Assembly (NCBI GenBank): GCA_964187785.1
Contig: OZ076409.1
Location: forward strand, 76,944,001 to 77,008,000
Direction: 5' to 3'
Length of the DNA: 64,000 nucleotides
Source: Amphiscolops sp. MND2022
Taxonomy: Eukaryota
Shown here: one piece after another, positions 20,787 to 64,000 of the stretch
How the letters are laid out: the number at the start of each line of letters is the position of its first letter
Position numbering within the stretch: the first letter of the stretch is position 1
Notes under the pieces: generated by a model
The model's input: only the letters and a program-made list of their open reading frames with translations
The model's database searches: none
What the model was told of the DNA's origin: nothing
Translations under genes and position numbers: made by a program

Positions 20787-20827
20787 TGGTTTTTTTGTAA
20801 TGGTCGGTTGTAACCTTTATGGTTAAT

Positions 20828-30879: not shown

Positions 30880-31601
30880 CTCCCCCTGGCATGAGCAAAA
30901 ATGTGCCAGAGGACATTCCGTCCAGAGAAGTTCTTCTTCTTCTTTCAGTCTCTGCTAGAGTCTCACCAGGCACAACAGTTTTGTCAAGATAATCGTTCAA
31001 TGCTTCTTCTTGTATTTGCAGGACTACTGACTTCCCGCAAACCACACAGTCTAAACAGCCTGCTAGACCAGAGTTTTCAGACAAGCCCATACCGTCGAAG
31101 CAGTTAGCAACTGAGTCAACCAAGGCAGTGTCTGTTGTATAGGTGCAGATCGGCATTTCTTGTACATAAACTGGTCCTCCGTCCTCTGGGGGCGGAGACA
31201 ACGGAGTATCAACCTGGGGCCGTAGGTTTCTGCAAATGCTAATGGAATGGTTGAATTTAATTCGGCCAACTTGTCCTATAGGCCCATTTCCTGTGCCCAG
31301 GTTGAAAAATTGTTGTGTACACCTAGGGTATGGTGACAGGTTCGGATTGGGTGCCCCATACCAGGCTTGTGTGCCTGATGATCCCGTGTTAGGAATAGCA
31401 ATGGGTTCAACTTAACTGTCCTTCTATACATCTCGCCATGATTTTATTGTCTTTTGACTCTTCATCTGATGACAGGCACACGTCGTCCACTGAGTCCCCG
31501 TTGACAGAAACCATTCTTTCATCTTCGTCGCTTGAAATGTATATTATTGCTGGGGTTCCCTCAGATCGAGCTGCGCCCTCGGAAAACGTTGGAAAGTCCA
31601 T
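30791..31601 (-). pseudogene. Accessory ORF-S of element A: acidic protein with SIM-like motifs; frameshifted; ends inside the 3' LTR
   Basis: Fragments 31407-31601, 31063-31269 and 30791-31201. The N-terminus aligns with 63788-64000 and the C-terminus aligns with the translation of 50358-50443. Confidence 0.75.
30880..30887 (-). promoter_or_regulatory. Polypurine tract of element A (AGGGGGAG)
   Basis: Directly precedes TG of the 3' LTR on the minus strand. Confidence 0.85.
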
Positions 31602-31680
31602 TGGAAACGTTTCAGAAATGTCAGACACGTATCTGGAATGTCCATTGGAAACGTTTCAGAAGTGTCAGACATGTATCTGG
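31596..31680. repeat. 44-bp tandem duplication at the start of ORF-S
   Basis: GTCCATTGGAAACGTTTCAGAA(A/G)TGTCAGACA(C/T)GTATCTGG starts at 31596 and at 31640. Confidence 0.85.
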
Positions 31681-32971
31681 CTTTTAATAATTTCTTAACA
31701 ATTTCTAAAGTGGAAAAATTCGCTGCGGATTTGGCAAAAGGCAAGTGAATTCAAAATTCAAGATTTGAAGACTGATCAGTTTCATTTAACGTAAGTTACT
31801 TCAAACTTGTTTCGTGAAATTCCCGTGTTTCGCTCTCCCCGCCAGGAGGTCCATTGACAACCACATCGACAAGTATTTGATATCACTATGCCGCGCCCTG
31901 GTTGACATTCGATAAACTTTTCTCATCTTCGGAGCGGCAAGTAGCCATCAAAGACTTTACATAGTGTTTATCAACACTCATAAACCACCTGAGGTTTTCA
32001 AGTGGATGTAGATATAGCTGAAGGCCATGATGTCGCGTTGCATTTTGAATGGCCAATAGGATTGCGATAAATTTCTGCTGAATTCAAAATAGCCTCCCAA
32101 GGCTGTGGATCCATATGAGGAATAACATACAATGACCTTGAAAACAAATAAAATAATGATAAAATCATGGAATAATTTGGAAAAAAGCAAAGTTTTCGAA
32201 ATGAAACAAGATAAAATAATGTAGATAACGCTGTTAGACTTTATCCACACAGTAATATAAATTGTACGTAATTGAAAATTTGTCATCAAACTGTATTGTC
32301 ACGATTGCCAATTTTGACATCCTGTCACATTGCCGATTCGCCATTCCAATTCTTTTCATTCAATTCTGCAGTATTACTGTTTTTTTCTTTATATCACCAG
32401 TACTCATCCATTGAATTTATTTTTCACCATATTTAATCCACAGTTAGTCTTTTAGTCTTCGTATCTTATTTATTTGCATTCTTCTATTGTGTTATCTCCA
32501 TCTTGGGACTCAGTGTCCATCTGTCCTCATCTGTGTGGATTTTCTTGGACCGTTCCGGATAACCGACATACAGTCCCCACTTGGCTACTCCCATGCCAAT
32601 TTTTACCCTCTCCGACTTCCTTGTCAGAGATCAACTGCAACAACGAATAAAAGAGTTGGATTCCAGAACTTAGTGTCCCCTCATTGCGACAATCTTCATC
32701 TAATTGCAGAACCGCTGACATCTAGGACACTTCCAACAGACTCTTTGCATTGAAATTCGAACAGGCCAGTTGAATTCATGTTCTTTTTAGCTATTAGTTT
32801 GAATTAAACTGAGGCTTGATCAAGGCTCTCATTTCATTCACGTACTTCCTGTCCAATAACACGAGTGTTCATTCAAGTTCAAAACTATCTACTTCCGGAA
32901 GATTTTTTAACGCGGTAAATGGATCTTGATTCAGTAAGATCCCGCTTGATTTTGTCTCTTTTTATTTAGAC

Positions 32972-35900: not shown

Positions 35901-36882
35901 TGTCAGCTTTCCTCCGGAGATTTTCTTCATCGATTGAAATTGAAAGAAGATTTGGACAAAGCTGCCACTGCCAAAGTCAAGCGTGATCACAGTGACAAAG
36001 AAGGACATATACTCAATCTTGCCAAGCTCGTCAAGGATTGCAAGGAGAGATTCGTTAGTAAGGCGAGAGGCTACCTCGTGTTTTTGCTCGAAAAGTTGCC
36101 ACAGTATAAACACCGAGATTGTCAGAAGAATGGCTAGCTTTAATTACCATATTCTCTTGAGTTCACCACCGGAACAGGTTACGCATTGCTTCTTTGCGTT
36201 GTACAATAGTTTCAGCCTCCGCGGATGGCTTGAGGGATCAACCGAGGATCATTGCCCAGACGAGTACTTGGAATTTACAGACCAGTTCCGACAGAAATAT
36301 GCCTCTTTGAAAGACTCGCCTGATGGGTTTACGGACATGGTAGAGTTGTTGTCTGGAATGTCCGAGCTCCGCAATCGCCCCCACCTATATCACATGTAAC
36401 GACTGCGTTGTTTATGTTTAACTGAAGATACCCTCTTGCTCCTTCCGATACGCTTTCAAGATGTTGATGCTCAGAGTCCCAGGTGTAGATTGGTAGATGT
36501 GTTACTGCCAGCTCAATCCTATTTGGCACGGGTCCCAGAAGCCATTACAGTTTGCACCAATGATGATTCTTTGACGAAATATCGAGAGGGGGATGAGCTG
36601 TTAAGTTCTGCGAATATGGCTGGTGACCCTTGGGTCCATGTAGATACTTTCGGAAGAGCAGAATTCTACAAGACTCTCATTGATACTTATAAGTCTATAG
36701 TTCGAGTGTCAAAGTCAGCTTTCTCAAGCCGGTCTAGTTCCTGGTCCAGTTCTCTTTCCATTAGTGGTCGCCTCAAGCCTTCGTCTAGTAAAGGGAAGAA
36801 GAAGGTTGTTTTCGGCCTTCCCATGACTCTGAAAGAAAACAAGCCTAATCAGGAGTCATCGCAAGACAATGCTAATCTTTAA
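32972..36882 (+). pseudogene. Antisense accessory gene of element A: BED-zinc-finger, hAT-transposase-like protein; exons ~32972-34637, 34769-35253, 35328-35462, 35532-35613, 35731-36882; multiple frameshifts
   Basis: Exon-by-exon protein similarity to 58548-62593 (GKVMK.AYFKGIQWT, FHHVF.RG, PQSLEW.II.DDFF, FQDVD..S.RCRL, AGDPWVHVD.FG). Several splice sites are decayed. Confidence 0.85.
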
Positions 36883-37107
36883 AGGTACATTACGTACATT
36901 TGTCTTATAGTTTCTTCTTTTGTATAAACGTTGAACTGTATGTACATCTGTTTATTGTCTATTAGTAGTCTTTTGTTTTGTTACCCAACAGCGGGTTCTT
37001 TGTCACATTTTGCTTCATTTGTGTATATAATTATATAGTCAGGGCAGTCCCAAGAAAAGGTTATCAGTCAGTTCAAATGACTATCGGGACATTAATTTAC
37101 ATTCTGA

Positions 37108-40100
37108 CTAATATCTGTATTTATCACTAAAGTTGGGGTTGGGGTTAGGTCGCAGGTTATATTTACCTGCTCTGGGGCTAGAATTTCTGCAGTTTTTTCA
37201 TTGTCCGATATTCCGGGCACGGTAATATCTGCGCCCCCATTTGAAACAACTTCCGGGCTTTCTAAGTCATTAGTGACGTCATTTTCATTTTCTGTCCCAC
37301 CAGGCGATTCATTCAGCGGGGACGTCGCGTCTCGGCTGCTGGCCGGCCTCGGCCTTAGTTTATTCTCGGTGACGTCACTTTCATTCGTACTCGCTGCTGC
37401 GTTCCTTTTCCTTTGTGCTGCAACTATCATTCTCGGTGACGTAATCGTCCACTCCGCCGCTCGCGGCGTCATTCGGCTGACTTGTGGCCGTATCTGGCCA
37501 ATTATCTTTTCTCGTTTCAAATAACTCGTAGTCGAAGTCTAATTCCCATGAAATTAAATACAAGTCATCTTGCGGTATTACTATCTCTTCGTCAGGCTGT
37601 AATTTTTCTTCTTTGTATTTGTCCTCCAAAGGAGTTTTTGGGACCAATTTTTCGAGTCTAATGCGGTGTAAAATTTGCGTTTTGTTCGTATTCAAACGCC
37701 GCACTATACTATTGTTCTTGGGTGAAACTTTTTGTACGATAAATGAACTGATCCATCTGTAGTCCCTGAATGGTATTCTAGATCCTTGGCTAACCGCTTT
37801 GGCCTTACGGTCGTAGTATTCTTTGTACATTAATTACGACTGCATTAAATTCCTTTTCGTTTGATTGACGAGGAATGCGTTCTTTGCTGTACTTCTTCCG
37901 CAAATTCAGTTGACGGGAGGAAATTTTTATTAGGATTTTTTCCTAAATGGTGATCAAGGACATTATAGGGATTTCGGCCATGAAAAACTTTACCGGTCTC
38001 ACATCCAGTACTGAAATGATAAGAAGTGTTATAAGTGAGCACAGCTAGCGGCAGATATTTGTGCCATTGGCGTCGATATTCACCTGACGCCATTTTCAAG
38101 TTAGTCTTTAGAGATGCGTGTGTCCTTTCAAGCTTGCCAATTGTTTGCGGATGTTTTGGGGTAGCACATTTGAGTGTTATACCCAAAATTTTGGTTACTT
38201 CCGTTACAATTGTTGAGGTAAATGCGGACCCCTTGTCTGTGATGAGGGTTGATGGCAAGTACGAATGTTTTGTCATTATATCGATTTTCACCTTGGCCAC
38301 GTTTGTGGCTGTTGCCTCAATTAGCGGGTAGGCGAATAGATATCTTGAGAATACATCAATTGCTGTCATCACTGTCTGGTATCCGCCACTTGTCGGTACA
38401 TTCGGTAATAGGTCAAATTGCATGACGTCTTCTAAACCGAGGTCCCGTTCGGGCAAGTTTAGCAATTCAGGTGTAATCACAGTATTAGGGACCCGTTTAT
38501 CCTTGGCACATGTTTCACAGCCTTCTACCCCTTTTTTAATGTGTTTTGCTATTCCTGGGTAGTAGTATGTTTTGGCGAATTTCTTGGAGCATTTTAGAAA
38601 TGCCTGGGTGTCGATGTGCTGTGCCATGTATCGCTTGCAGTAATTCCCTTAATAGGTGCTTTGGCAGTAGGATTTGATGATATTTTACTTGTCTGATTTC
38701 ATCATAATACTGCCGTGTTACAATTTCATCTTTGAGAACTGGTCGGTCAAAATAGGTCCTGTTGAACGATTTCCTCAGAATACTCCTCCTTTTGGATTTT
38801 TGCTTTCAGTTGACGTAAAATCTGATCTTTAGATTGCTCTAAGATTATTTGATTCGTTCGTCGTAATTTCCGGGTGAAATTGGTAATTTCATCCTCCGTG
38901 TTTTCTGATATTGCATCATTTTGAAATATTGGCCCAGGGACCTTGAGGCCCTTTTGGGATTGTTTCATTCCTTCCCAAATCTGTTCTTCCGTCTCATTGT
39001 TCTCTTCAGTAAAAAAGACTTGCCTCTGTTCGGACACTCCGGCTGATTGGATTGGACATTGACCTCGATTGGTTGTGTTTCTACGTCCTCACGTAGTTTC
39101 AGGACTAACTTTTCATTAAGGTCCATTTCCATACGGGACAGGTAGTCCGCCGCTGTGTTATTTTTGCCTGGAATGTGGGCTATGATGAAATTGAATGGAA
39201 TTACAAAATCACAAGCATTCCAGAGGGGCGGTGGTTTTATCTTGGTCTAGAAGAACCTCGTGACTGATTTGTTATCGGTAAGAATAATTATTGGTTTAGG
39301 TGATCCCCAGAAGATATGTCCAAACTCCTTGAAGGCGTAACATAGTGCTAGGAATTCCTTTGCATATATTGACATTTTGAGCTGAGAAGGTGTAAAAGTT
39401 TTGGATCCCTATGCGATTGGCGCATAGGACTTTTTAACAGAAGGATATTTCTGATTTGGGTCGTCTTCGGACAGTATGGCGTAACCGGCGGCTGTAAAGC
39501 TTGCATCGGTCCTCTGGACCAAATGTTGGTTCGGTAAGGGTTGCTTCAGTGCTAATTGGCTACACCTGTCTAGGTCTCTGTTGATCTCGTGGAATTGTTC
39601 GTTTAGCTTTGTTGTCACTAGGACCTTCTCGTCCTCTTTGAGGAGTTGGAAGAATGGAACTAATGTTTCGGATATACTTGGTATGTAATTCCTGTAGTAA
39701 TTGCGGAAGCCAAGGTAGCGTTGTAAGGCCTTCTTCGACTTCGGAAATTTCTTTTTTTTCCAAGAAATTGGTAATTCGTTTCTTTTGAGGTTTTACTCCT
39801 TCAGGAGTAATTGTTCTCCCAAGGAAGTCAATTTCGGTGGCGCCAAAGTGGCATTGATGCATGGACAGTTTTAGTCCGGCTTTTCTGATGCACTGAAAGG
39901 TCGCTCTTAAGTTGGTGATGAGATGGTTAGCATCAATTGCAGCGCATTGGTCGGCTTTTATATCACAATCTCTCATAAAGCTGAAGATACCGATAGGGCT
40001 CGACTGAGTCCTTGTGCTAATCTCCTTTAGGCAAAGGTCTTGCTGGCGAAATTAAAGGCTAGCATTTCGATGGACTTCTGGTCCGCCATGGGGACGCAAT

Positions 40101-40407
40101 GATATGCTAGTGAACAATCGAATTTACAGAAGAGTTTTTCCCCTGCCGTATGTTGTGCATCCTCTGTCAAGGTTTTGACTGGTTGGTTGTTATGGACGTA
40201 ATCATCTGAAATCAGATTATTTAATTTTTGTCAGATCAACCAGCAGTCTCAGTGTACCATTGGGTTTTTTAGGGCGAATATGGGACTGGCATACTTTGGA
40301 GCCATTGGTGTCTCTAATATATTGGTGAAAAGTAATCATCGGAGGATCTGATATGACATACTGTCGAACTGACATATAGTCATGTATTTGGAGTCGTGGC
40401 AATAATA
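37108..40407 (-). pseudogene. pol: pol of element A (RT-RNase H-integrase remnants; protease region and YVDD motif deleted)
   Basis: Fragments homologous to B pol: KKPNG.LRLLVDL, CHFGATEIDFLGRTITPEG, TDASFTAAGY, TDKG...KLERTH. Confidence 0.9.
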
Positions 40408-42091
40408 GTTTTTTGAATCAGTTTTGCGAGAAGTTGATTGGCCAGAAGCGTTTGTCTTTGTGGTACTTGACTTCTTAGGTGTCTTTTCTTCTCCAGAGGT
40501 GTCATCGGCTTTGTCATCCGTGTGCATCCTTTTGGGACGTCGATGTGCCCCTGCCCCTTTCCAGCACCGTTCAACGGGGTGGTTCTTTTCCCCCTAAGTT
40601 GGGCATTCTGAGTAAGTTGGACGTTGGGGCTTTTTGCCATTTTTATCTTCCAATTCCTTTTTCTTCTTGAGTTCGGGTAAAGTTCTATAGTAGTGGCCTG
40701 TAGCTTTGCAATATCAGCATTGGGCATCCTTGTTGGTGTTAATACCATTGGACAGCAAATTGCTATTGTTGGTGGACGCTGAGGCCATAGTGGCCATTGG
40801 CAAGTCTTCTGACTCCTCCAATGCATTGAGTTCGAGCTCTCTTTCGAGATGAGCGACATTCTCTTCATATGTCCCATTCTCCAGACGGGCCATGTTGACA
40901 GATCGTTTCAACTTCGGAGGCAGTTTTGCATACAACAGGCTGTCAATCATACTTTTTGCATTTTCACCAAAAGCTTTTTCTGCTCCTTGGTCCAATTCTT
41001 CCAAGTAACCTAGCAATTTCATGGTATTAGGGTCAAAAGTGAGTCGATGCCGTTTATGTTTTGCCTAGATTGGGATTCCGATTTGACGTATTTCCTCCGG
41101 AATATGACCAGTACGTCCTCTAGAGTCTAACGGTTGATGGAATTTATGTTCCTGAATGTCTGTATTGCCCCCTTTCGCAGCAGTGAGTGGAAATGGTTTA
41201 TCTTCATCTGCTCTGTCATAGCCGGTTGCATTTTGATCATTGTATGGGACAAGTCCTCAAAAAGCTCAAATTTTTCGCTTTTTCCGTCAAAAGTCATTGG
41301 CGTGGTTTGAACTGGTCTGATGGTCATCGATTGGGGTTTGTTTTGCAAAGTGATCAAAAAGTCAGCCAATCTGTTTAACGGGTCCTGCGGTGTTTCAGGT
41401 ACCTCTGGTTCTGGGGCTGGCAGAGTGGTGTCCAGAAAGACATTGTGGTTTGATTGTTGTCTCTCCAAGTTTTGGATTGAGTGGATTCGTCCAGTCAAAA
41501 ATTCGGGAATTTGCTGTTGGGCGTCGTTAGCTCCTGTCACCATGTAAGACCCACGTCTCGTGGTGTCTCTCAAATCACAAGCGGACCGTGATCCCTTTTT
41601 TGTTAATATGGTTTTCAACCCGAATGTATTTTCCCTGTTTTCCTGACTATTAGGGGACAGGCTTGTCTCAGTGTCCCTGTACCCTGAAGATGACATTGAA
41701 CTCACAATGTCTTGAATCTCTGGAATAACTCTTTCAGATAAAGCAGTACTGATGGCCGTTTATTTGATTGTGGACCACGGACATCATAGAGTCCAATTCT
41801 TAAGACAGTCTAAGATTGAACTCATTTGAAAAGGTCTCAAAAGACTGCCTGACATCATTTTGTCTCGGTGAATCATTTTCACATGCAAAATCCATATAAT
41901 CACTTCTTTGATGAATATTTTCCTCGATGTCACCTTGGACTGAAGATTGCTCAAACGCGTTTGCTAGTTCCCTTTCATCAGGATTCCCATTCCCTAGCAT
42001 ATTTTCTGAATTATCCAAATCGGAAATCATGTCCATTTCTCTAGATTTTCTAGCCTTGGCCTTTTGCTTTCTGTCTTCTTGTGAAAGGCAT
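40405..42091 (-). pseudogene. gag: gag of element A, starting inside the 5' LTR
   Basis: ATG CCT TTC ACA AGA AGA CAG at 42091. Fragments 41800-42036, 41127-41705 and 40714-41022 match B Gag. Confidence 0.85.
41531..41542 (-). promoter_or_regulatory. Primer binding site of element A (TGGTGACAGGAG; probably tRNA-Leu-like)
   Basis: Follows the LTR end CTTACA and is identical in element B. It differs by one base from the tRNA-Leu-type PBS TGGTGTCAGGAG. Confidence 0.8.
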
Positions 42092-43082
42092 AAATGTCTC
42101 TTTTGGGGAAATATTTATTTTTTCCCTATGACTTTACCAACAAAGAGAGTTGATAGAAATGGTTTACAGTGTACAAAAGTATAAACTGATACTGTTGAAG
42201 GAATCTCGAGTTATGGTCCCTAAGACCACGAGTCCCTCGTATTTATACCTGCACCTTCATGACAGTCAATTTTAGAGGCGTCAAAGGTCTATTTTTAAAA
42301 TGAGGTAAGCTGAAAATAGCATCAGGGTGACGTAATACTCTGAATATAAACATCTAAAGGTAGCGGCATAAATGTTTACATGGCCTTAAAGGCTACATCA
42401 ACTATAGTCATGGAAAATGCATATGAAACATTTACATGTCAGAGCAACATTACATGTATAATAACACATATTTGCATGAAGATTAATGGACTAAAGGTCC
42501 ATTTGATGAATATGGGGAAAAGGCTACGAGTTAAAACCTCTTGGTTTCCTGAGGCTATTTCACTTTTGATTAGCGCCTTTTATTGAGTGGATGAACGCTG
42601 AATAGCTCCTTTCATTCAATTTTGGACTCAGTGTCCAATTGCCGCAGCTTTTACTTCAAAATAAACAAATCAATGACGAACCGCCATTGAGTCCAATAAT
42701 AATGCTGATAAGTATACTGCTCTCTGATTAGTTGATAAATAAATCGGACTGTGTGTCCAGCGAGCCAGGAGATGAAACACTTGAGCTCGTTTCCTCTACC
42801 TGTACGCCTTGGTGTCCAATTTCTCAACGCATACAAATAACTTTACATGTCTTATTACATCAAATCAGTAACAAAGCAACCAAATAGATATAGTTACATG
42901 TTTTATTATATAATAACATAACAAAACAGTTTCATTATGTAAAGTTTCAGTCCTGCCTACTCTGATCTTCCGGGCCTGACTGTCGACCTTTCCTTAATTG
43001 AGAGGGATTGTCTCGGGTAAAGCCCTACCGTAATCATAGGCACGCGTATACCAGTTGCCATCGCAGGCGGCCGCCTGCGACA
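41543..43082 (-). repeat. 5' LTR of element A (1540 bp)
   Basis: Direct repeat of 29394-30879; TATA-like TATAAATA on minus near 42240-42247. Confidence 0.95.
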
Positions 43083-43502
43083 GTTGGTTCGGGAGATTAT
43101 AGGGATTCTCCGGATGAAAAAACAAACCGAAAATTTTAATTCTAAGCTACTCAATTTTCGAAATTAAAATTTCCTAAAAATTGCATTTTCTAACTATTTC
43201 AGTAAGCGTTGTAGAAATTTCAAACAAACATTTTAGTGAACTAGTTAAAATGCTAAGAAATTGTCTTAGCTGACATTTTCTTGTATTTGTGACAGTTTTC
43301 ATGAAATTTGGATTTGAAATTTGCAATTATAAGCAATGGAGTTGTGATATTTTAGAACGCTACTGTAGTTCGAGTCTTAAGGTTCTATCTTGTCTCTCGA
43401 AGATCAGCATTTGCATTATCTGTTTTTTGCTGGCAATTCCACGGATATTTACATCACCTTGTTCGTGTCCTGGTCTTTGACTTTCACTTGCTTCAGTTCG
43501 GT

Positions 43503-50357: not shown

Positions 50358-51985
50358 TGTCGCAGGCTGCCGCCTACGATGGCAACATTTACACGATTGA
50401 CCATACGAAGCCAATCGCCCTACCTGGGACGCTCCCATTGTAAACCAAAACTTTCAAACATTTAGTATTATTTTGAACATGTAATATTAATTGATGAATT
50501 ATATTGTTATTTCTTATGTAAAATACATTTGACAGCAAGACATACTGACAGGCAGAAAGGAAACGTGTTCAAATGTTTACCTGCTCAGTATGGCTAGCTA
50601 AGCCGCCTACGGTCAATTGGCCAATCAGAGTGCAGTTTGTAATAGCCATCTTATTACTTATTACGTAACTGTGCTAATAACTATTTAGAATGGACCAAGG
50701 CGGCCAACTAACTTTGCCGGCCTTTTTGTGCTCTAATGCTATACTTGATTGGTATTCAGTAATTACAAATAGGACGAAAGCGGCTATGTGACATAGCCGT
50801 CCCAATTCACTGTATTAATTGTCTTGGTGCTATGCAGTAAATAAGGCCTGTCATGGCCGGTTGGCACGATGAATACTCAAATGCTGTATACTTGCCATAT
50901 GAAATTGGTATTCCAGTTAATTAGTGGCTTGAAGATGCAAATAACCCACCCCATGCAATAAACAGACATATACACTGTTAACATGTAATTGTTGCTCTCT
51001 CATATTATGATGGGACTGAATTAGAAAACCCCAACGGCCATACGCCGAACAGGGCCTTCATGAATTGTTGTGCATGTAAACTGTTGCTTGCATGAATTAT
51101 ACTTGTAAACAATTTGACCCATATGTGGATGAGACTTGTCGGGCCCTTTGATCTAGCCGCCCGCACAAGTCTAAAATGATGTCATGTTACTATTTATAGT
51201 GCTGACGTATCTATTTTTAGTTTGCGTTGCTATTTTTAGTATCATGACCGTTACAATTTTGCCTGTCATGCCCTCTGGGGTATATATACCCAAGTCGGCC
51301 TGACAAAGGTTAATCATAATTTAGCAGCTACCTGATACACTACGCTCATTTTGATTAATCTGAAAATAGAAATACTTGTCCACAGGAACAATTCAAATAT
51401 TTTCTCCTGGAATAATATTTTCAATGCCTTCTACGAGGAGACAAAAGGCCAAGTCTAGAAAATCGAGAGAATTAGATATGTTGTCCGACTACGGCAACAT
51501 GGACGTGATGCTAGGTGGGAGAAGTTCCAACTCTATAGAGAGAGAACTCGATAGCTTGATTAACGTCCCTGAGGGACAACGAGACTTTCAGTCCTTTCCA
51601 AATAGAGAAAACTCATCTCAAGAAAATGAGATTAGAGACATTGATAGTAGAAATGAACCAGTTAGGGAAAGTAGGCTAATTGAGTCTATCAATACGCTAT
51701 CTGGTGAAATGAACGCTAGGATGTCACGCGAGATGAAGGCTATGATGGACCTAATGCAATCACAAATTACCAGAGCCATTAGCTCTGCTATAAGCGAGAG
51801 AATTATTCCGGAAATACAAAATATGGTTGAAAACTTGCCTTTGGGTCAAAATGGCGTTGGGCCGGGTACGTCCCTAAATGAGGATGGAGTCAGAAGCGCA
51901 TGGGAGAACGCAAATACAAGATTGACAAAGAAGGACTCTAGGTCCGCTTGTGACTTGAGAGAACATCCGGACGTTAGTCCTTACA
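50358..51985 (+). repeat. 5' LTR of element B (1628 bp, boundaries inferred from homology with A)
   Basis: Begins TGTCGCAGG and ends CCTTACA before TGGTGACAGGAG; TATA-like TATATATA at 51281-51288. The second LTR is not in the window. Confidence 0.85.
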
Positions 51986-53126
51986 TGGTGACAGGAGCTA
52001 CCGAACTCCAACAGCCGATTCCTGAATTCCTCACAGGACGAATCCACTCTCAGCCAGACCTCCAAAGACAAGAATCTACTCATGATACAACTCTGGATAC
52101 AACTCTGCCAATAGCGGAGCCTGCTCCGGCAGAACAGCAACAAGACCCTATCAACCGATTGGCAGATGTCCTGGTAAACCTCCAAAATAAACCACACTCG
52201 ATGACAATTAGACCAGTCACGACGAACCCCATGACATTTGACGGCAAACAGAGAAATTTGAATTGTTTGAAGATTTATTTCATACAATGATAAAGATGCA
52301 GCCTGCTATGACTGAACAAATGAAAATAAACCATTTTCATTCTCTGCTCAGAAAAGGAGCACTGCAAACTTTCCGAAATATAAACTCCATAAACCGTCAA
52401 ACATTAGAAGACGTATTGGTCATATTCCGCAGAAAGTACGTCAAACCCGAGTCTCAAGCCACAGCTAAACATAAGTGGCATAGGCTCATCTTTGATCCCA
52501 ACACAATGAAACTACCCGATTTTCTTGAGGAACTCAACCAGGGTGCCGAGAAGGCCTTTGGGGAAAACGCCAAAAGCATGATCGACAGTCTCTTGTATGC
52601 TAAATTACCCCCAAAACTCAAAAGATCAGTAAATATGGCTCGACTGGAAAACGGGACCTACGAGGAGATTGTGGCACATCTGGAACGGGAACTTGAGTTA
52701 AACGCATTAGAAGAATCTGATGACCTACCCATTGCTACAATGGCTTCGTCGTCCAACAAATCCCGAAATTTACTATCTAATGGCATTGACACCAACAAAA
52801 ATAACCAATGCTCATACTGCAAGGCAGACGACCACTTCTGGAAAAACTGTCCAAAACTGAAAAAGAAGAAAGAATCAGAGGCCAAAGACGGCAAGAAGCC
52901 TCAACGACAAACTTATCCAGAATGTCCCACCTGCAGCAAAACCAATCACCCAGCAGAGAAATGTTGGCGTGGCGCTGGTGCCCATCTTCGTCCAAAAAGA
53001 AATAGACAAGACTCCTCCAAAGACACGGAGCCCTCTGAAGACGAAGGCACTCGCACCAAGAATGAAAAATCCACAACATCCTCATCAGGCCAATCGAACT
53101 CCAAAAAACCGGAATCAAAAAACTAA
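51424..53126 (+). CDS. gag: Gag with two CCHC zinc knuckles; one apparent 1-nt deletion near 52248
   Basis: MPSTRRQKAK start; CSYCKADDHFWKNC and CPTCSKTNHPAEKC. Element A reads FDGKSEKFELFEDL continuously where B shifts frame. Confidence 0.9.
51986..51997 (+). promoter_or_regulatory. Primer binding site of element B (TGGTGACAGGAG), within the gag reading frame
   Basis: Identical to A. Read in frame as TAC ATG GTG ACA GGA GCT (Y M V T G A). Confidence 0.85.
53117..53123 (+). other. Putative -1 ribosomal frameshift heptamer A AAA AAC at the gag-pol junction
   Basis: X XXY YYZ pattern in the gag frame just before the TAA. The -1 frame is the pol frame. Conserved in A at 40408-40414. Confidence 0.75.
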
Positions 53127-56100
53127 TTTTGCCACGACTCCAAATCTCTGACCAAATGTCGATACGACAATATGTCATATCTGACCCAGCTAACATCGCT
53201 TAAAGGCAATCACAAGAGAACATCACAGGGACCCCATCGACTGTCTGGCAGCAGCAGATGGTGGAAGCCTGTACTCAAACTCAATATATTATTCACAGTG
53301 ACCACCCATACCTATATCGACGTAATAACCTCACCAAAGACTTAGAAACCCAATTCCGACCCTTACAAACTGTCGAAGACTATAACCCCCAATACTACGA
53401 CCCCGAGTACGGCAAAGACCCGTACTGGGATGATGATTTATACGATAAACACAATTTACAATTTCGGAATGATGACTACCCGCCAACAGACGATGAGTAC
53501 GACCCTGACATTGTAGACACCATACTGTCCCGGGCACTTATCGAAACGTGGCAACCAAATTTTGATGCAATCAAAGATCAGCCACATACAGAAGAGACAC
53601 AGGCCATACCTGGCCTCCTCGACGAGACAGCCTTCATACATGTCCTTGTAACTAAAGAGGGAGAACCAGCGTACATACCATTATCCACAAACCTCGGACT
53701 CAAATACAAACAACGGATGCTATATTTCCCGATGGACTTTGGGGAACTAACCATAGACGGCCTCATAGACACTGGAGCTCACTCCAGCGCAATTCCGGAA
53801 GCAGACCTCAGGAAAATACGCCTATTGGCGCCCCAATCCATAGTCAAAGAGGGACCTGCCCCGACGTTCCAAAGTATGGTCGCAAACGGACAATTGGAAA
53901 CCACAAAGAGCACTGTTGAACTCAAGTTCGAAGTCGGAGATATCGAATTCCACGAAATATTTATAGTAATGGAAAAACTGACTGGCCCTATCATAGGATT
54001 AATGTTCCTCCAGAGGAATCATACAGTACTGGACATGCGACAAGGCATACTCAATTTCCCATATTTCTCGATGCAACTCAAAACGGCTGACCATAAATAC
54101 TCCAACGTACTGGAACCAATACTTAACCCAGACGACATCACAATACCACCCAATGACCGTACCTTAGTAGAGATCAAATCCCAAATCTACAATGAAAACA
54201 CGGTCACAGGTGTGTTGCAACCCAGTGATCTCCTCCATGAAGAAGGCGACATCACATTCTGTGCCGCAATAGTAACATTGACTAATGGAAACGTTAACGT
54301 TCATATCAACAATTTCACAGACCAACCGTACAAGCTTAAAAAGGGACTACACATAGCAAACTTTTCTGTACTAACACCGGAACAGATGAAACACGTCAAA
54401 CCAATTGACCCGGTGTCCACATGGCATCTCCTCAATGAAAATGAAGAGGATGCGATCTACTATGTCAGTAGTCTACTCAAGGCTAATCGGAACAATGACC
54501 AATATGAACAGTACTGGTTTCCTACGCCAGAAAACCCAGGGGACGAAGATTCCTATACTCCCATCCAACGACGAATTATTCAAGAATTACGAAACCTCCA
54601 AGAAGCTCAACAACTGAATCATCAGAATGATGATGAGTCACGCCGCAAATGCCTTGGCAATTTCGACTGGAAAAACTCCATGCTGCAACAACATGAAATC
54701 AAAAAGATCGAATCGCTTTTAGTCGAATACCATGACATATTCGCACGACACAGATTTGACATCGGAATGAATGAAGAATTCACGGTCAAACTGACCCCTA
54801 AGGACAATTCGCCTGCTTACAGCCAAAGTCTCCCAACTCCAGTCAATTTAAAAGAGGACATACTCGTCGAACTGGCCCTCTTACACAAATATGGCATAAT
54901 AACTACACTGCCATTTTCGAAATACGCCAGTCCCATATTCGCACAGAAAAAACCGAATGGGAAGCTAAGACTACTAGTCGACCTGAGGAAAATTAATAAC
55001 CTCATTTCGGATGACTATATAAACAACAATCATCCGGTTAGTACCCTAACGGACGCTGCACAACATATGGCAGGAAAGAAACTATTCTGTAAACTCGACT
55101 GTTCACAAGCATATCACTGCCTACCAATGGCGGATCAAAGGTCCGTTGAGATGCTTGCGTTCAACTTTGCAAGCCCCACCTTTGCGTATAGACGACTTGC
55201 CCAGGGCCTTAGCAGGGCATTATCAGCATTTTCAAGTTTTATTAGGGAATATCTCGACAAAGTTAGTTATCAAAGCTGATCAATGTGCCCAATATGTCGA
55301 CGACATTGGCATAGCCGCCAATGATGCGGATCATCTCATAAGAAATTTGAAAGCAACATTTGAGTGCATTAGGCATGCTGGCCTTAAACTGACAATGCAC
55401 AAATGCCACTTCGGGGCAACGGAAATCGATTTCTTGGGGAGAACAATTACTCCGGAGGGAGTCAAACCACAAAAGGAGCGAATAACCAACTTCCTAGAAA
55501 AAACCAAATTCCCCAAATCTAAAAAGGCTCTACAAAGATATCTTGGTTTCCTCAATTATTACAGGAACTATATCCCAAGATTATCTGAAAAATTAGCTCC
55601 TTTCTTTCAACTTCTCAAAAAAGACGAAAAAGTCCTGGTGACCACAGAACTAATACAACAGTTCAATGAAATCAATCGGGACCTCGACAAATGTAGCCAA
55701 TTGGCCCTGAAGCAACCCTTACCAAACAAGCAACTGGTCCTGATGACAGACGCTAGTTTCACAGCGGCCGGCTACGCCATACTTACCGAGGACGACCCAA
55801 ACCAGAAATATTCATCTGTCAAAAAATCATACGCTCCAATTGCATATGGCTCAAAAACGTTTACGCCATCGCAACTCAAAATGTCCATATACGCAAAGGA
55901 ATTCTTAGCAATTTACTACGCATTCAAAGAATTTGGACATATTTTCTGGGGAGCCCCTAAACCGATTACTATCCTAACGGACAACAAATCGGTCACGAGA
56001 TTCTTCCAGACGAAGATAATCCCTCCAACACTCTGGAATGCATGTGACTATGTAATACAATTCAACTTTGTCATAGCACATATACCAGGGAAAAACAACA

Positions 56101-58369
56101 CAGCAGCTGACTACTTATCTCGCATGGAAACGGACCCCAGAGAGAAACTAGTCCTTAAAATCCGAGAAGACATAGAGACTAAGCCCATCGAGGTCAATGT
56201 CCAATCGGCAGGCGTAGCTGAAGAGGAACAGGTCTTCTTCACGGAGCAAGATGATGAGACAGAAGCTCAAATTTGGGAGCGTAAAAAACAAAGCCGAACT
56301 AACCCAATCGACCAAGAAGGCGTAATTCAAATTGACGCAATATCTGAAAGTTTAGTAGATGAAATTACGAACTTTACCCAAAAAATGCGCAGAACGAATC
56401 AAATTTTACTTGAACAATCCGAAGACCCTATGCTGCGCCAACTCAAAGCCAAAGTTCAGAACGAAGACTATTCTGAAGAACTACTCCAGCAAGATATCCG
56501 ATACAAACACTACCTTAACAACTTGGACCGAATAGTCCTTAAAGACGAAACAGTCACACGACAATATTATGATGAAACTGGACAAGTCAAGTATCACCAG
56601 GTTCTCTTACCAAAACACCTTTTGACAGAATTGTTACAGGCCTTACACGGAACGGCGCACAAACACCCGGGCATATCGAAAATGTTACAAGAAATTCGAC
56701 AGAAATACTACTACCACGGTATAGCAAAACATGTTAAAAAATGGGTAGAAGGATGTGTAACTTGCGCAAAAGATAAAAGGGTTCCAAACAACACGATAAC
56801 ACCTGAATTGCTTAACTTGCCAGAATGGGACCTTGGCCCAGAGGACGCAATGCAAATTGATTTACTCCCAAACTTACCAACAAGCGGGGGTTACCAAACA
56901 GTGATGACAGCAATAGATGTCTTTTCAAGATATCTATTTGCCTACCCGCTAGTTGAGGCAACAGTCTCTAACACGGCAAAGGTCTTAATAGACATCATGA
57001 CAAAGCACTCATATTTGCCAACTACGATCATCATCGACAAAGGAACCGCTTTCACAGCAAAAATAATTGCAGAGATAACGCAAGTATTGGGAATAATCCT
57101 AAAATGTGCGACAACTAAACATCCACAAACAATTGGCAAACTCGAGAGAACTCACGCCTCATTGAAAACAAATTTGAAAATGGCCTCAGGGGAATATCGC
57201 CGTCAATGGCACAAATATTTGCCGCTAGCAGTGCTCAATTATAACACAACTTATCATTCCAGCATCGGTTGTGAACCGAGCAAGGTCTTTCACGGAAGAA
57301 TTCCCTATAACGTTCTTGATCATAAACTTGGAAATAACCCTAATAAGGATTTCCTCCCCACGACGGAATTTGCTGAAGAATTACAACAGAGAACGAAAGT
57401 TCTCATTGACAAAACGAAGCACAACATTATGCAGTCCTACTTGAAATATAAGGAGTACTATGACCGAAAAGCCAAAGCAGCTCCTCTCAGCGAACAAGAT
57501 TTTCGTTTTATCCTACAGCCTAAAGCAGATAATCAAGGATCAAAAATACCACTCAGAGAATATCGCTGGATCGGTCCCTATCGAATTGAAAAGGTATTAC
57601 CTAACCATAATTACATTGTCCGCCGGTTAAATACGAATAAAACACAGATATTACACCGAATCCGCCTGAAAAAATTTGTTCCTAACACGACTTTACAGGA
57701 CAAATATGCCAAAGAGAAATTGCAACCAGATGATGAAATAATCATACCACAAGATGATTTATACACCATCTCATGGGAAGCAGATTTTGACTACCATCTC
57801 TTTGAGCCGAGACGAGACGATAATACGGACGAAGAATCGCAAAAACCAGACAGCGATGCTGGTGTCACGACTAGTGATTACGTCATTTATGACAACGCTG
57901 ATGACAACGCGGTAAGGCCGAGGACGGCCACCAGCCGAGACGGCACAATCACACGAGACGCAAATGACGTCACCGAACTGAATGAACGAACCAAAAGGAA
58001 TGAAAATGAAGCGGGACCGAGTACGGCCGCTAGCCGAGACGCACCTATAATGCATGATGAACATGACGTTAGCGAGAATGCTGCGCGAGACGAACAAAGC
58101 AGCGAAATAGAAAGGCCGAGAACGGCCACTAGCCGAAATAGCCACAATGGTGGCAATACACCACCTAGTTCAGAAAAGAACGTGAATGACGTCACAAACG
58201 AATTAGAAGGCGAGAAAAACTCTCCTAACGAGGGGGATGATATTACCGTGCCCGGAATATCGAATGAAAAAGCAAATGAAAAAACTGACAAAAACTCTAG
58301 CCCTAGAGGGGGAAATACAACCTCCGACCTAACCCCAACCCCAACTATACTGACGAATACAGATACTAG
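53123..58369 (+). CDS. pol: Pol: aspartic protease, dUTPase-like segment, RT, RNase H, integrase with GPY motif and long tail; a few lesions (TAA near 53201, 4-nt duplication near 55262, G loss near 58310)
   Basis: LIDTGA; KLDCSQAY and QYVDD; TDAS...KEFLAI...TDNKS...ADYLSR; H..H..C..C; QIDL / IDKG / KLERT; WIGPYRI. Confidence 0.95.
57914..58140 (+). repeat. Three ~99-nt tandem repeats in the integrase tail
   Basis: RPRTATSRD, GPSTAASRD and RPRTATSRN at ~57914, 58013 and 58113. Confidence 0.7.
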
Positions 58370-58547
58370 TCAGAAATGTTAAATTATGTCCCTATTTATT
58401 TTATTGCCCGGGATGGCATGTTTTTTACTGGGACTACTCTGACTTCTTTGACTCAAAAGAAACTAACTATATAAATACTAAAACAAGAAACAGAACTGAA
58501 ATTTACAAATAGAAAAGTCTAAAATGGCGAATGTACACTATGTACAT

Positions 58548-61500
58548 TTAACTTTTAGAGCTTCCTTCTCGCAATTCTTGGACAGTCTTTGAGATCTCAC
58601 TAGCAGGAATGTCGCCAAAATAGGCCAATTTTTGAGCTTGCCCAGCAGCCCAATTTATCTTTCGCCCAGCAGAAGTTGAGACAGAGGACGAACGTGAAGC
58701 CGTGCTAACGCCAACCACAGGAGTTCCTTTCAAATTCTTGAAGGCAGCAGTAAGGGTCTTCAGGAAATTTGCCTGCCCAAAGACGTCGACGTGAACCCAA
58801 GGGTCTCCAGCAAGCTGTCCAGAACTAAATTGTCCCTCCAATTCTTTGTAGTTGGCTAGAGCGGTTTCAGTGGTACAAACGGAAATCGCACTTGGGCAAT
58901 TTGTCAAGTAGGATTGGGCGGGCAGTACTACGGCAGAAAGACGGCACCGGGAACTGGAGGTATCGACATCCTGGAATTTAACGGCAGGAAGGGTTTGATG
59001 TCCCTCAGTTATGCAAAGGCAGCACAACTGAAACAAGCGAAAAAGCCTAGCACGACTTCGGAACGCAGTAATTGGAATAAGGAGATGTAACACGTCAGCA
59101 ATAGTCCCTGGGGAAGACTTAATGGAAGGGTAAGATTTGCGGAAGTAATCCACAAACTCGAAATATTCATCCCGACAGTCATTACGGGAGGATTCGTCCA
59201 CCCAGCCGCGAAGTCGAAAGCTGTCATACAAAGCGTTGAAGCAAAAGGATACTTGCTCAAGAGGTAATGTTAACAACACATGGGGATCGAAGCTACCCAT
59301 ACCGCGGACAATATTCGCGGTGAAGTGAATATCCCGAAGCAAAGACTCCAACAGAGTGACTATATACGCCCGGGCTTCAGTCCCAAAGTTCTCCTTCTCC
59401 TTGGAGACCAACTCAGCCTGATTAGCGGGTACAGGGTTTGATCCCCTAGATTTCTCCAGTTTTGCTTGACAAACCAGATGAAGGTCACATGTGAGTTTGA
59501 GGCGATGCAAGAAATCACGGATTGATAATTGTCTCAGATCGTCAGGGCACAATTGCAAGAGACCATACCAGTCTGTATCGCTTGGGATACATTTGGGCAA
59601 GATGACGCGGTGGCACAACCGGCGGATGAATCTGCAATATTGGCTATAAACGAAGAGGGTTGCATCCCGCCGTCCAGAGAGACTTCGTTCAAAAAACTTG
59701 GCATCTAAACAAATTTAGAGTCAGATGCAAATCACCAGAATCTACCAAATCCCCCACCTCATCACAAATGTGGTTATGCTTAAGGCCGTGATCGGCACAT
59801 GAGCCGGTAGGTCAACTACACTGGCGGTTCAAATAAAAACAAAGAAAAAACTAACAATCGCGGACCAGCAAGGAGAGGAATTCAAGCTTGATGGTGAAGA
59901 AGTCATCTAGAATAATCTCCCATTCCAGGCTCTGAGGCTTAAAAGGAAATTTACCTCATAAGGATTACATCTTCCAAGATTACAGTGTGGTGTAGTTACC
60001 AATGCTGATCAGCTAGAAAACGGCTAATAGCTACCTTATTCTTAGCTCCTTGCATCTTCTGGGTTGGGGCTATACTGGTCAGGTAGTCCTTGATACCTTT
60101 CCAGCTTCTAACGAGCTCGGAACAAACGGCAGGGATCTTCTTAAGTTCCACATCACATGGCTGTTATGGCCTACGGAACACAATCAAATAAGGAGAACTG
60201 CTTTTTACTAGTGAAAGTGACCAGGAAAGAGTATCGACACCAGGTCACCAAGACAACGTCTAATGAAAAAATTATGTTGAAAAATAAAATCACCTTGCAA
60301 AGTTCAGGACTCTGTAGAGCCCAAGATTGACTGAGCCCGCCTCGGAGGTAGACAACTAGGAACTTCAGTTGGGAGAAAATGTCAATTCGACCAAAGATGT
60401 AACCAGTCTGCAGTGCTGTGGGGTGCATTAACTCGGGAAGGGAGAAAACCTCGAAGCGGAACGGGTACTGAATCCCGCGGTTGAACAGCCCACATGTCTC
60501 CAAAGCTCTGAAGACCATGGAAGAACACCCGGAAACACTGACAAGATTGGGCTTTGAGGACACAACTGACAGCAGACATGAGATAGCTGTTAAGTAACAG
60601 CCCGGATAAGGGTCAGCTTGATTGTGCCGATGAAGTTCAACCGGCACGAGTGAGTCATCTCTCCAGAAACGGACGGACATGCACCGGTAGATGCCCTCTG
60701 TCGTGAACTCAATCGAGTACATCTCAGTAGCCATGATGTGACTGGAGATATCTGCGAGACCTCTCATGAAAACGTGATGGAAGACGTTCTAAAACAAAAC
60801 ACAAATGTACAAAAGTGACGTCTTAGCCAGAGGCCACGTTGGGTCTTACTATTAATTCTATAGATGAAGATTCTACTTACAGTAAGAGTTGCAGGTCCCC
60901 AATCGAATGAGGAAAACAAGGCTTGGTGGTTGGTGAACATGCCCACTCGAGTCCATAAGTTTCGCAACAGGGAAATATTGTCATCTTGCGGTACGAAAGT
61001 CCCAATCAATGAGATTAGGGTACTGGTCCGAAGGTCATCAGGGCTGGTTAGTCCTCCAATACTAGCCATGTAGTCGTCGTAGAACGGGAAACGATCACCT
61101 GTCTCGATCAGGGGGGCATCAATGAATAATGGCTTTTCTTGTTCCAGCTCAATTGGAGTAAGGACGTAACCATCTTTCCCTCTGACATAGTGGGTAACAA
61201 CCCCAGTAACTTCATCAGCCTCTTGCAGATGGGTGAACCTCCATTTTTGATCTTTCCGGAGATGTCCTTCTGTCTTATAGTGTCTAAGGATCTCCCTGGC
61301 GCCCTTTGAGAAAATAGAGACATTAGTTTTACATAGCATGCAGTAAAACTTGAATTTATTGTGGACGGGATCAACGGGGCCAGATACGAAGGTACGGGTC
61401 CATTGGATGCCCTTAAAATAGGCATCTTTCATCACCTTCCCGGGTTTGCTGAGCAACTTGCGTTTTTTCCGGGCTGGGCTCCTGTCCTGAGTTTCTTGCT

Positions 61501-62593
61501 CGGGTAGCCGTCCAAGCGACGAGAGTGGCTGGTAATCAGCACTGCTATACACGCTTCCAGAGTTTGGCGTTGCAGTTTCTATCCGGGACGTGATGGTGGC
61601 GTGGACTTTCCGGGCCCTTGGAGTCAAAGACAAAGGATCAGATTCACTCAGGCAATCTGTGCCAGAACTGGACCCCAACTGGTAAGGATCTTCATCTGTA
61701 TTGAAGGCTCCACTAGTGTAACCATCTGACACGTGTCCTTCAAAGTTACTTTCATCTCCTGAACTGTCAGTGAATGGCCGTGCAGGAGTTGCACACCGTT
61801 TGGGCATAGGCCTTTTCTTATCCTAGGGAGCTCCTCGAGTAGCATGAAGCAACAAAGACTTCATCATGTGGTAGGACGAAAGTACAGATTCGTCGGAAAC
61901 AGTCCTCGGAACAGCGTGCATCTCATCTGCGGTAAGAGCGATGACTGGTTGATCTCTGGGTAGTTCAATGGGGCGAGTGTCCTGAAAATATTTCTTGATG
62001 ACTAGTTTGCCCTTCGCAGAAAGTTGTCTATCGGTGCCGTCTAATTTGGCTCGATACTGCTCCTGTTCAGAATCACTGTGCCCTGAGTCTTCATGGAATC
62101 CCTCTTCTAGATCAGGGAAAGTAGAAGAGTCCAAAATGACATTTGGAGCGACTGGTGGGTAGACGGCAACGCCAGAGCTGTCCATTAAATCTTCTACATC
62201 TGTGGTGTCGCCATATAGTCCTGGTACTTCCTCTGTAGATTCGGTTTCCTTGTTACTGCCGGCCCCTGTCTCAATGTTTGTCAGATCATTCCTCACAGTA
62301 ATGGGCTCCGACACAGAGGCTTTCAGAAAGGGGATGCTGACAGTGACCATCCGGGCAGTAACGCCTTGCCGACTTTGCAGTGGATCTATGATCTCAGCCT
62401 CGGGTTGAGACATTACGTCAATAGTCCTTTCAATAAATGCGGTCACACTTTCTTCAGTAGACCTGCTGCCTTCGGACACTTGGGGAGAAGGCCTGACAAG
62501 GCCTGGTAACTCAACGGTCTCTGGAGTCTCAGTTTCATCGTTCCCGACAACTGGAGCGGTAGTGGGTTCTGGCGAATTTTCCTCTGTTGTCAT
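58548..62593 (-). CDS. Antisense accessory gene of element B: ~1190-aa BED-zinc-finger, hAT-transposase-like protein; exons 62593-60881, 60788-60294, 60170-60035, 59937-59856, 59704-58548
   Basis: Four GT..AG introns (92, 123, 97 and 151 nt) with compatible phases; zinc finger FYCMLCKTNVSIFSKGAREILRHYKTEGH. One in-frame TAG (61823-61825) and a probable 1-nt insertion at the start of exon 3. Confidence 0.8.
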
Positions 62594-63787
62594 ACCTAAA
62601 TGAAAAGAGATAATTCGATGCGGACAACTTCCTGAATATGAGTCCATCCAAACCGCAGTAAAATCTTCCGGAAGTGAAAAGGAATAAAACATGACGTCTA
62701 AATTGCATTGACGAAAATGGACAGGAAGTGCATGAACGAGATGAAAAGCCTTGATCAAGCTTATTTCCGTTCAAAAATTAAAAGACCAGATAGCTTACCT
62801 GCAGTTGTTGGCCAATTGGGAGCTGAAGGAGTATGACGTGAAGATCGTTGACGTATTGAAATTGTACTGCAATCCAGGCTAGAAAATCCTGAGGAACCGA
62901 ATGTCCTGATCGGGCAAATCTTTGGCAGTGAAGAGGGAGGAGTAGGTCTTGATAACGACGAAAAGGGAGATCTGGACGAGTCCGGCAACTGGACAACGAT
63001 CCTGAACGAGGGGATGAGAGGCAGTATGAAATTCACAGAAGTGCTGTGGGGTAACGGAAGAAGTATAATATTCAAACAATGACTCTGTACTAAATAAACA
63101 ATGGATAAATACGAATATGGAAAAGTAACGATTAATGAATTGGAAGAAGACGAAATTGATTGCAAGAGCAAAGTTGGAGTTCGTGGCAAACTGGATTTGA
63201 TGTCAAATATTTTTACAATTATGAGAATTATTTTGTGGATGGAATCTGCCAGAGAAATCCACATTAGTTATATTTCGAAACATGCATTTTCATTATTTTA
63301 TTACCTTAGTTATTTCATTATTTTTAGTTATTTTATTATTTCCTTATTTGGATTATTATTTTTAATTCCGCCATATTGAAAAGCGGACTGAGTGGGCGAT
63401 TCCCATTGGCTGTCGCGGCGATGCGCTGCGCGTGGCCTTAAAACTTCATCACCCTCTCTTGAAATTCTCAAGTGGATATCAAGTGGAGATAAACACTAGG
63501 CGAAGTCCTTGAAGGTTCTTTGCCGACTTAGGCAAGCTGAAGTTGATCGTCGGTCAACAAAGCAGAAGGCGGTCTATATCAAAGAACATCTTGGAAAGTT
63601 TAGTCAGCGAAACATGATGCGGGAAACGAAAGACCGGGAAAATGTGAAGCAAAACCATCGAGAAATTGAGAAATGAAAATCGCCATTTGCTTCCTAACTT
63701 TCAAACTAAACAGCTGCTCTACTCAAACCAAATTAAAATTGTCCTATTGCATTCAAAATTGCAAAAAAGATAATAAAAGATAGATTT
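62594..63787. promoter_or_regulatory. Putative internal bidirectional promoter between the two accessory genes
   Basis: Motifs conserved with A 31602-32971: CTTCCGGAAG, ACAGGAAGT, CTTGATCAAG and ATTGGC (CCAAT box). Confidence 0.55.
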
Positions 63788-64000
63788 ATGGCTCAACGAT
63801 TTCCTGAAGACTTCATCGGCGCAGCGCCCGAGGGCATAGATATCATCTGCCTGTCCAGCGACGAAGAGGAGGGAATGTGTGACCTAAGCATGACTTCGGT
63901 GCTAGACCTTCAACTGTCATCGGAGGACGAAGAAGAAATAGATGACGAAATCATGATGATGGCCCAGTGTGTCGAGATGGAATTATCATCACCCATCCCA
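63788..64000 (+). CDS. Accessory ORF-S of element B (5' part, runs off the window): acidic protein with tandem SIM-like motifs
   Basis: MAQRFPEDFIGAAPEGIDIICLSSDEEEGMCDLSMTSVLDLQLSSEDEEEIDDEIMMMAQCVEMELSSPIP; homologous to A 31407-31601. Not in the supplied ORF track. Confidence 0.75.
   Translation, partial: MAQRFPEDFIGAAPEGIDIICLSSDEEEGMCDLSMTSVLDLQLSSEDEEEIDDEIMMMAQCVEMELSSPIP

Follow-up and report, generated by a model that had tools for sequence, protein, structure and literature searches.

The window analysed here, a stretch of 64,000 nucleotides of the Amphiscolops sp. genome, holds two diverged copies, A and B, of one Ty3/Gypsy LTR retrotransposon family. Copy B runs on the plus strand; only its 5' LTR falls inside the window and its 3' end lies outside. 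From left to right, its features are:

50358-51985, plus strand: 5' LTR of B; its first ~86 nt are the last ~28 accessory residues and its last ~560 nt the start of gag
51424-53126, plus strand: gag-like ORF of B, in two frames in this copy
53204-58382, plus strand: pol of B, with protease, dUTPase-like, RT, RNase H and integrase regions, in two frames in this copy
58548-62770, minus strand: antisense ORF cluster of B, with four frames, a zinc-finger-like stretch and a hAT-like last ORF
63405-63409, plus strand: ATTGG (reverse CCAAT box), ~383 nt before the ATG of B, matched in A and in the metagenome contig L001
63755-63787, plus strand: 11 basic in-frame codons before the ATG of B, with protein-level similarity to A, L001 and 7 database proteins
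63788-64000, plus strand: accessory ORF of B, codons 1-71, stop-free and continuing beyond the window edge
63842-63871, plus strand: motif 1, IICLSSDEEE, residues 19-28 of B, a core of the SUMO-interacting motif (SIM) type followed by CK2-type serines and an acidic run
63899-63937, plus strand: motif 2, VLDLQLSSEDEEE, residues 38-50 of B, with a canonical core in B's lineage only
63947-63988, plus strand: hydrophobic segment, conserved and predicted to be helical, that follows the acidic run (residues 54-67 of B)

Element A, on the opposite strand, spans 29394-43082 (13.7 kb) and has TG...CA LTR ends, a polypurine tract (PPT), a PBS-like TGG and a short target-site duplication, the flanking 5-mers matching at 4 of 5 positions. 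Its features, in the reading direction of the element, are:

41543-43082, minus strand: 5' LTR of A, which agrees with the 3' LTR at 1348 of 1467 aligned positions (92%)
32930-36882, plus strand: antisense ORF cluster of A, the counterpart of B's
31407-31601, minus strand: piece 1 of the accessory ORF of A, with motif 1 at 31518-31547 and motif 2 at 31458-31490, ending in a stop
30791-31411, minus strand: piece 2 of the accessory ORF of A, in another frame, with the CxxC at 31034-31057, running through the PPT into the 3' LTR
30880-30890, minus strand: PPT of A, inside the accessory ORF
29394-30879, minus strand: 3' LTR of A

The domain order of B pol matches that of Ty3/Gypsy elements (protease-RT-RNase H-integrase). 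Between protease and RT (53204-55279, plus strand) lies the dUTPase-like domain, whose Pfam E-value of 1.7e-4 is just under the cut-off. The frame pattern of the antisense cluster suggests an intron-containing, captured gene of transposase origin. Besides, the last antisense ORF resembles hAT dimerisation-domain clusters in the Atlas (score 0.90, with PF05699 in 68% of members), which we treat as a lead only; the taxa of the Atlas look-alikes hint at an animal host. Gag starts ~560 nt inside the 5' LTR in both copies (51424-51985, plus strand, in B; 41543-42114, minus strand, in A) and continues past the end of the LTR and across the PBS. Each LTR thus carries the accessory tail as well as ~187 gag codons and is unusually coding-rich. 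At the LTR start there is a 20-bp palindrome, exact in A (30858-30877, minus strand) and near-exact in B (50358-50380, plus strand) and L001 (1195-1215), which encodes a SQAAACD stretch. Its conservation may be driven at the DNA level, as an integrase end, a hairpin or the site of a dimeric binder. Inverted repeats on either side of element A (28922-29132 and 43163-43376, 76% alike) suggest that its insertion site was a small inverted-repeat element. At 14528-21053 lies another LTR element, the third in the window and more decayed, with 170-nt direct repeats that are 86% alike and, on the minus strand, protease-like and integrase zinc-finger fragments.

The accessory gene of this family lies on the sense strand, after the antisense ORF cluster, and extends over ~275 codons through the PPT into the 3' LTR. 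Retroviral nef is likewise an accessory gene whose reading frame crosses the polypurine tract and enters U3; the analogy is one of position only, and no similarity between the two was found. Translation of 63788-64000 (plus strand) yields 71 aa without a stop, containing the two motifs that a preliminary description of this DNA had reported for B, IDIICLSSDEEE and VLDLQLSSEDEEE, together with MAQCVEMELS. These 71 residues are the exact N-terminus of the 279-aa database proteins P0086, P0088, P0089 and P0092, which provide the full ORF sought in that description and rule out its view of a small protein. For B itself we infer a full length of 279 aa, with the end predicted near position 64627. 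What had been missed is the length of the ORF (~275 aa), the conserved domain in its C-terminal part and its overlap with the PPT and the 3' LTR. As reported, copy A carries AIIYISSDEDE, VDDVCLSSDEE and MARCIEGQLS (31407-31601, minus strand) at the same spacing; in A as in B, the cores are located at residues 19 and 38. The cysteine cluster CLDCVVCG ascribed to A is present as well (31034-31057, minus strand), yet in frame 30791-31411 and not in that of the motifs, which makes A a broken, decayed copy. Its accessory ORF is disrupted near 31410, and 44 nt at the start of this ORF are tandemly duplicated.

The true start of the gene may lie upstream of the ATG, since the 11 basic codons preceding it look conserved as protein: those of B resemble their counterparts in A, L001, P0046, P0068 and P0338, and the differences include synonymous changes. 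Possibly, they form an N-terminal extension that is spliced on or initiated at a non-AUG codon, and such an extension could carry a nuclear signal. In all of B, A and L001 (three sequences only), the ATTGG box with A[AG]GTGG after it lies 383-453 nt ahead of the ATG and possibly hints at an internal promoter element.

The accessory ORF is a multi-copy, intact gene in a highly amplified family, the pol clusters of which reach 1547 members. A search with the accessory piece of A returned 11 longer relatives and one with P0007 returned 82, with cluster sizes of 163, 70, 66, 27, 27, 23 and 18 members. A profile built from 30 family members matched 436 representatives at E 0.001; among these, the best 150 were listed and 32 proteins were inspected by eye. 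Metagenome contigs contributed a single relative, L001, at 37% identity, and viral contigs none. Close full-length relatives measure ~262-279 aa and distant ones ~253-283 aa. For comparisons in depth, 226 family proteins were narrowed to 98 that cover the C-terminal domain, 79 that are non-redundant and 16 near-full-length representatives with <50% mutual identity, which share 24-49% identity with P0086 apart from those of B's own lineage. The accessory protein thus is an unannotated family of ~275 aa, conserved down to ~25% identity and encoded in a nef-like position.

Searches for known domains and folds were negative or non-specific. Pfam gave no family for the 71-aa piece, nor any at curated cut-off in 30 or 81 aligned members; the PDB sequence search of the family gave one chance row, ESM Atlas gave no usable match, and Foldseek returned nothing at E 0.001 from PDB (first model) or BFVD (second model). 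AlphaFold2 models of the protein had low global confidence (pTM 0.26, then 0.31). A wide VIA search retrieved generic helical hairpins only, up to a best match with Z 5.9, rmsd 2.6 and 45 aligned residues, which is no proof of a new fold; all fold searches ran on whole-protein models. An env-like identity of this sense ORF was rejected, as none of 81 members has a 14-residue hydrophobic run and the N-terminus is acidic. In B, the first 71 aa contain 20 acidic residues against 1 basic one.

Within this N-terminus, motif 1 stands out by its conservation. A SIM core plus acidic residues is, as a bare pattern, at chance level in the window, with 3 forward matches and 1 reverse match in six frames against 3.9 +/- 1.8 forward and 3.55 +/- 1.8 reverse expected from 40 shuffles, whereas the family conservation of motif 1 exceeds chance. 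The phospho-SIM pattern proposed earlier is therefore upheld for motif 1 by conservation in the family and not by its mere occurrence. Of 82 close relatives, 56 cover motif 1, and 48 of these keep a canonical hydrophobic core, that of a SIM with four residues and at least three V/I/L (F being allowed at positions 2 and 4). Aliphatic residues occupy core positions 1, 2 and 4 in most of the family, down to ~30% identity and mostly as I/V/L exchanges; at position 3, Y, C, F, S and N are all found, and I in some distant members. After sequence weighting, S23 is present at 100%, S24 at 91%, D25 at 91% and E26 at 93%. Outside the overlap with PPT and LTR, motif 1 is the block of lowest entropy (mean 0.71, covered by 21 of 30 aligned rows, versus 1.99 in the adjoining linker). 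Synonymous sites are saturated between A and B (pS 0.84 over the 10 codons of motif 1) while pN in the motif is 0.14, so that selection acts on the protein; this pN comes near that of the integrase control (0.09), and over all 60 aligned accessory codons pN is 0.32.

Among the 16 representatives, the strict SIM-plus-acid pattern was found in 11, against 2.0 expected from block shuffles, and it was absent from the 6 other ORFs of the elements. As these representatives share ancestry, 11 of 16 does not equal 11 independent events, and in one of the eleven, P0100, the match falls in the hydrophobic segment at residues 55-58. The five that lack the strict pattern comprise two with a proline at core position 1 and three from one clade in which motif 1 has decayed. 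The clade of P0291, P0314, P0327 and P0342 has kept SSD and lost the hydrophobic core of motif 1. In P0366 the motif is internal, and the distant member P0261 has two forward motifs. We prefer this strict count over a looser pattern that was widened post hoc and is met within the first 80 residues in 12 of 16 (1.34 expected). In the AlphaFold2 model the N-terminus is disordered, with a pLDDT of ~50 and no secondary structure over residues 1-47, as expected for a linear motif, which would place motif 1 in an accessible region. Given that the core is kept in close and in most distant relatives, and given the synonymous saturation between A and B, the reading of motif 1 as a phospho-SIM is well supported by sequence, and the motif fits the SIM definition in the available text of PMC12751080. 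That it binds the SIM groove of SUMO (beta2-alpha1) is, in our estimation, quite probable. When residues 1-71 were modelled together with P0381 of contig L002, a SUMO by PDB match that served as stand-in, the complex scored 0.01, but the chains were folded without alignment and the result carries no weight either way.

Motif 2 fared differently. Its canonical core was found in 13 of 65 covering relatives, all of B's lineage. The conservation of hydrophobic cores across copies, on which the earlier description had made its case depend, thus holds for motif 1 and fails for motif 2 outside that lineage. A partial form, hydrophobic-x-hydrophobic-SS, is present in 41 of the 65, and two forward strict motifs occur in one of the 16 distant representatives. 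Tandem SIMs and a SUMO-chain binder, as previously put forward, would hence be a matter of B's lineage and not a family property; for the family, the case for an RNF4-type poly-SUMO binder is weak. The hydrophobic segment that follows the acidic run (residues 54-67) reads as a SIM-like motif in reverse orientation in one distant clade. The clade in which motif 1 lost its core has segments in the order acid-then-hydrophobic, with a strict match in one of four members. A reverse SIM arising de novo in that distant clade was rejected, because the match aligns with the family-wide hydrophobic segment at residues 55-58; the four carriers of the reverse motif form one clade (97/91) and hence represent at most one event.

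After residue 47, the AlphaFold2 model shows one helix (residues 48-66) and, with confidence, a helical hairpin that spans 204-242. Within the cysteine cluster, it is CxxCG[KR] that the family conserves, in 62 of 81 aligned members; in place of the first C of CLDC, relatives mostly have Y. Candidate zinc ligands are C135 (61/73), H179 (64/81), and C197 and C200 (75/81 each); further conserved are C258, which overlaps the LTR, and H130 (50/71). Judged by these residues, the C-terminal C-H-CxxC likely binds zinc. As to a zinc hook of the Rad50 type or a treble-clef finger, Rad50_zn_hook matched one of the 81 members, weakly (E 0.023). A RING or SUMO-targeted ubiquitin ligase (STUbL) was rejected, with four to five conserved Cys/His against the eight ligands needed and no Pfam domain at cut-off in 81 members. 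Residues 72-149 form a basic region (12 K/R vs 6 D/E). A double proline-directed phosphosite motif, [DE][ST]PxSP, occurs in 51 of 81 members, including P0086 (residues 143-149) and A (~31190-31210, minus strand).

The accessory gene encodes a real, conserved and previously unannotated protein with one credible phospho-SIM, and our best reading is a SUMO-docking nuclear regulator that would counter silencing. Anti-silencing proteins of transposons, such as those of the VANC type, relieve the silencing of their own element in trans. The mechanism we propose proceeds in steps of falling certainty, everything beyond motif conservation being inference. Motif 1 would bind the SIM groove of SUMO, and its serines, predicted CK2 sites, would upon phosphorylation tighten this binding. 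The C-terminal half would bind zinc and then oligomerise or engage a partner, which would supply the valency that most lineages lack from a second SIM. On the SUMOylated chromatin of the element, the protein would then compete with, or disperse, repressors of the SetDB1/Windei(ATF7IP) type, which depend on SIMs, so that the LTRs would stay active. The lack of a RING points to a decoy or adaptor rather than a ligase. In flies, SIM-dependent recruitment of SetDB1/Wde silences transposons, according to the accessible part of 10.1101/533091. Even where SIM binding occurs, it does not set the direction of the effect, as viral SIM proteins may activate, repress or traffic (PMC8430037, as far as its available text goes). 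If SUMO is bound, we give the displacement of SIM-dependent repressors and the maintenance of active LTRs an even chance; the whole chain, from docking on SUMO via one phospho-SIM to blunted SUMO-dependent silencing of the element, remains tentative and somewhat on the doubtful side. Less probable still is an element-specific system of two parts against silencing, in which a SIM-bearing, zinc-oligomerising decoy, the element's own antagonist of the SUMO pathway, would be aimed at the LTR palindrome by the co-encoded antisense hAT-derived DNA-binding protein; we deem this unlikely, yet if true it would be the transposon counterpart of the herpesvirus immediate-early SIM proteins.

The acidity of the N-terminus also fits a generic acidic activation domain, which counts against SUMO docking and leads to the reading of the protein as a SUMO-using transactivator or autoregulator of its own LTR, comparable to foamy-virus Tas. 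SIM and acidic N-terminus would recruit coactivators, and the basic middle region or a partner would target DNA. The predicted amphipathic helix at residues 48-66, the basic region, the 3' position overlapping the LTR and the near-perfect LTR-start palindrome of A, B and L001, a possible response element, all agree with this, as does the use of a similar SIM for transactivation by HCMV IE2 in the text available to us. However, Pfam and fold searches found no known DNA-binding fold, and the palindrome may instead be an integrase-end or RNA signal. Besides, the SUMOylation consensus occurs in only 12 of 81 members, so that a conserved self-SUMOylation site was rejected and self-modification of the IE2 type is not conserved. 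On balance, we hold a transactivator to be unlikely. Alternatively, motif 1 may not be a SIM but an acidic, CK2-phosphorylated patch for another host protein, such as an activation-domain target, a histone chaperone or a phospho-reader. The chance-level occurrence of the loose pattern in raw sequence, the retention of SS plus acid in motif 2 with its core mostly lost, and the clade around P0291 with SSD but no motif 1 core would all be accounted for. It is the aliphatic residues at core positions 1, 2 and 4 in most of the family that speak against such a patch, to which we likewise assign a low probability; nor did two other short-motif readings gain ground, LxCxE being rejected (0 of 81 members) and an acid-flanked LIR-like pattern being rare (8 of 81).

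A post-transcriptional or integration helper would be either a Rev/CERV-like exporter of unspliced RNA or a tether of the integration complex to SUMO-rich nuclear sites. CERV of the C. elegans element Cer1 is nuclear, phosphorylated, endowed with a Cys-loop and needed for the export of genomic RNA (PMC10309623, partial text), and the accessory protein has conserved Cys/His residues and, in many members, the [DE][ST]PxSP motif; HPV L2 targets nuclear bodies via a SIM (PMC8430037, same portion). Yet 'SUMO' does not appear in the main text of the CERV paper, and Pfam detected no RNA-binding domain in sets of 30 and 81 members, which leaves this helper role clearly improbable. Finally, the SIM might recruit host SUMO-dependent repressors to the element and thereby limit its copy number. 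The host repressors SetDB1, Wde, Daxx and PML do use the same SIM type, as judged from partial sources, but the high amplification of the family would fit weak restraint at most, and self-restraint is very improbable in our view.

Returning to SUMO docking against silencing, known systems offer partial parallels. Extra ORFs in LTR elements (PMC7264820, PMC6431247, PMC10309623) and viral SIM proteins (PMC8430037) are already known from the accessible portions of these papers. SIM1 of HCMV IE2 has the core CIVI, and CK2 phosphorylation of adjacent serines raises its SUMO affinity 8-fold (10.1101/655282, available text). Like IE2-p86, the accessory protein joins a four-residue aliphatic core to CK2-type serines and acidic residues in what would be the regulatory protein of a mobile element. 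No homology was found, though, and IE2, according to the same text, binds DNA as a transactivator, acts as a cis-E3 and has SUMOylated lysines beside its SIM, whereas the N-terminal 71 aa of the accessory protein are lysine-free. The viral STUbLs HSV-1 ICP0 and VZV ORF61 resemble it in having SIM-like motifs in an element-encoded protein, with an anti-silencing outcome proposed here, but differ in their RING E3 domain (PMC8430037, in part). At best, and by analogy, the accessory protein works like these viral SIM proteins, as had been suggested.

Among retrotransposons, CERV is a non-env accessory protein of an animal LTR element with a conserved Cys cluster and phosphosites; according to the available text (PMC10309623), it has 517 aa, derives from a spliced 5-exon mRNA, has a frame in common with gag and exports RNA, with no SUMO link mentioned there. 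Unlike CERV, the accessory ORF lies at the 3' end of its element, where it overlaps PPT and LTR, and the N-terminus of its product is SIM-like. The plant Gypsy elements Athila, Grande, RIRE2 and Retand also have conserved extra ORFs of unknown function between pol and the 3' LTR, of which the antisense ones have transposase-like domains and the sense ones are described as env-like (PMC7264820, as far as seen). Our family differs in combining the antisense cluster with a sense, non-membrane, SIM-bearing ORF that overlaps the LTR. Burro giant Gypsy elements of planarians share the dUTPase between protease and RT and a link to ubiquitin-like systems; their SUMO-like domain, however, is part of a huge polyprotein in an element about twice as long, and the portion of PMC6431247 at hand describes no SIM protein.

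It is through SUMO-SIM contacts that recognition guided by piRNA or KRAB brings SetDB1-type repressors to transposons (10.1101/533091, accessible text). Herpesviruses attack this recruitment step with SIM proteins. Among the matches listed from full-text literature, with most subscription journals outside coverage, there was no transposon-encoded SIM protein that counters silencing and no account of the accessory family; nor did the family appear among those on dUTPase-bearing or antisense Gypsy elements. With so short a motif in so strongly amplified a family, the means by which animal transposons counter nuclear silencing become directly accessible to experiment. Should the SUMO reading prove wrong, there would still be an unannotated family of proteins of ~275 aa in a nef-like position. 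As a separate observation, an intronless SUMO gene (400-672, plus strand), whose PDB match is SUMO2 at an E-value of ~1e-23, lies on contig L002, which is assigned to a giant-virus bin.
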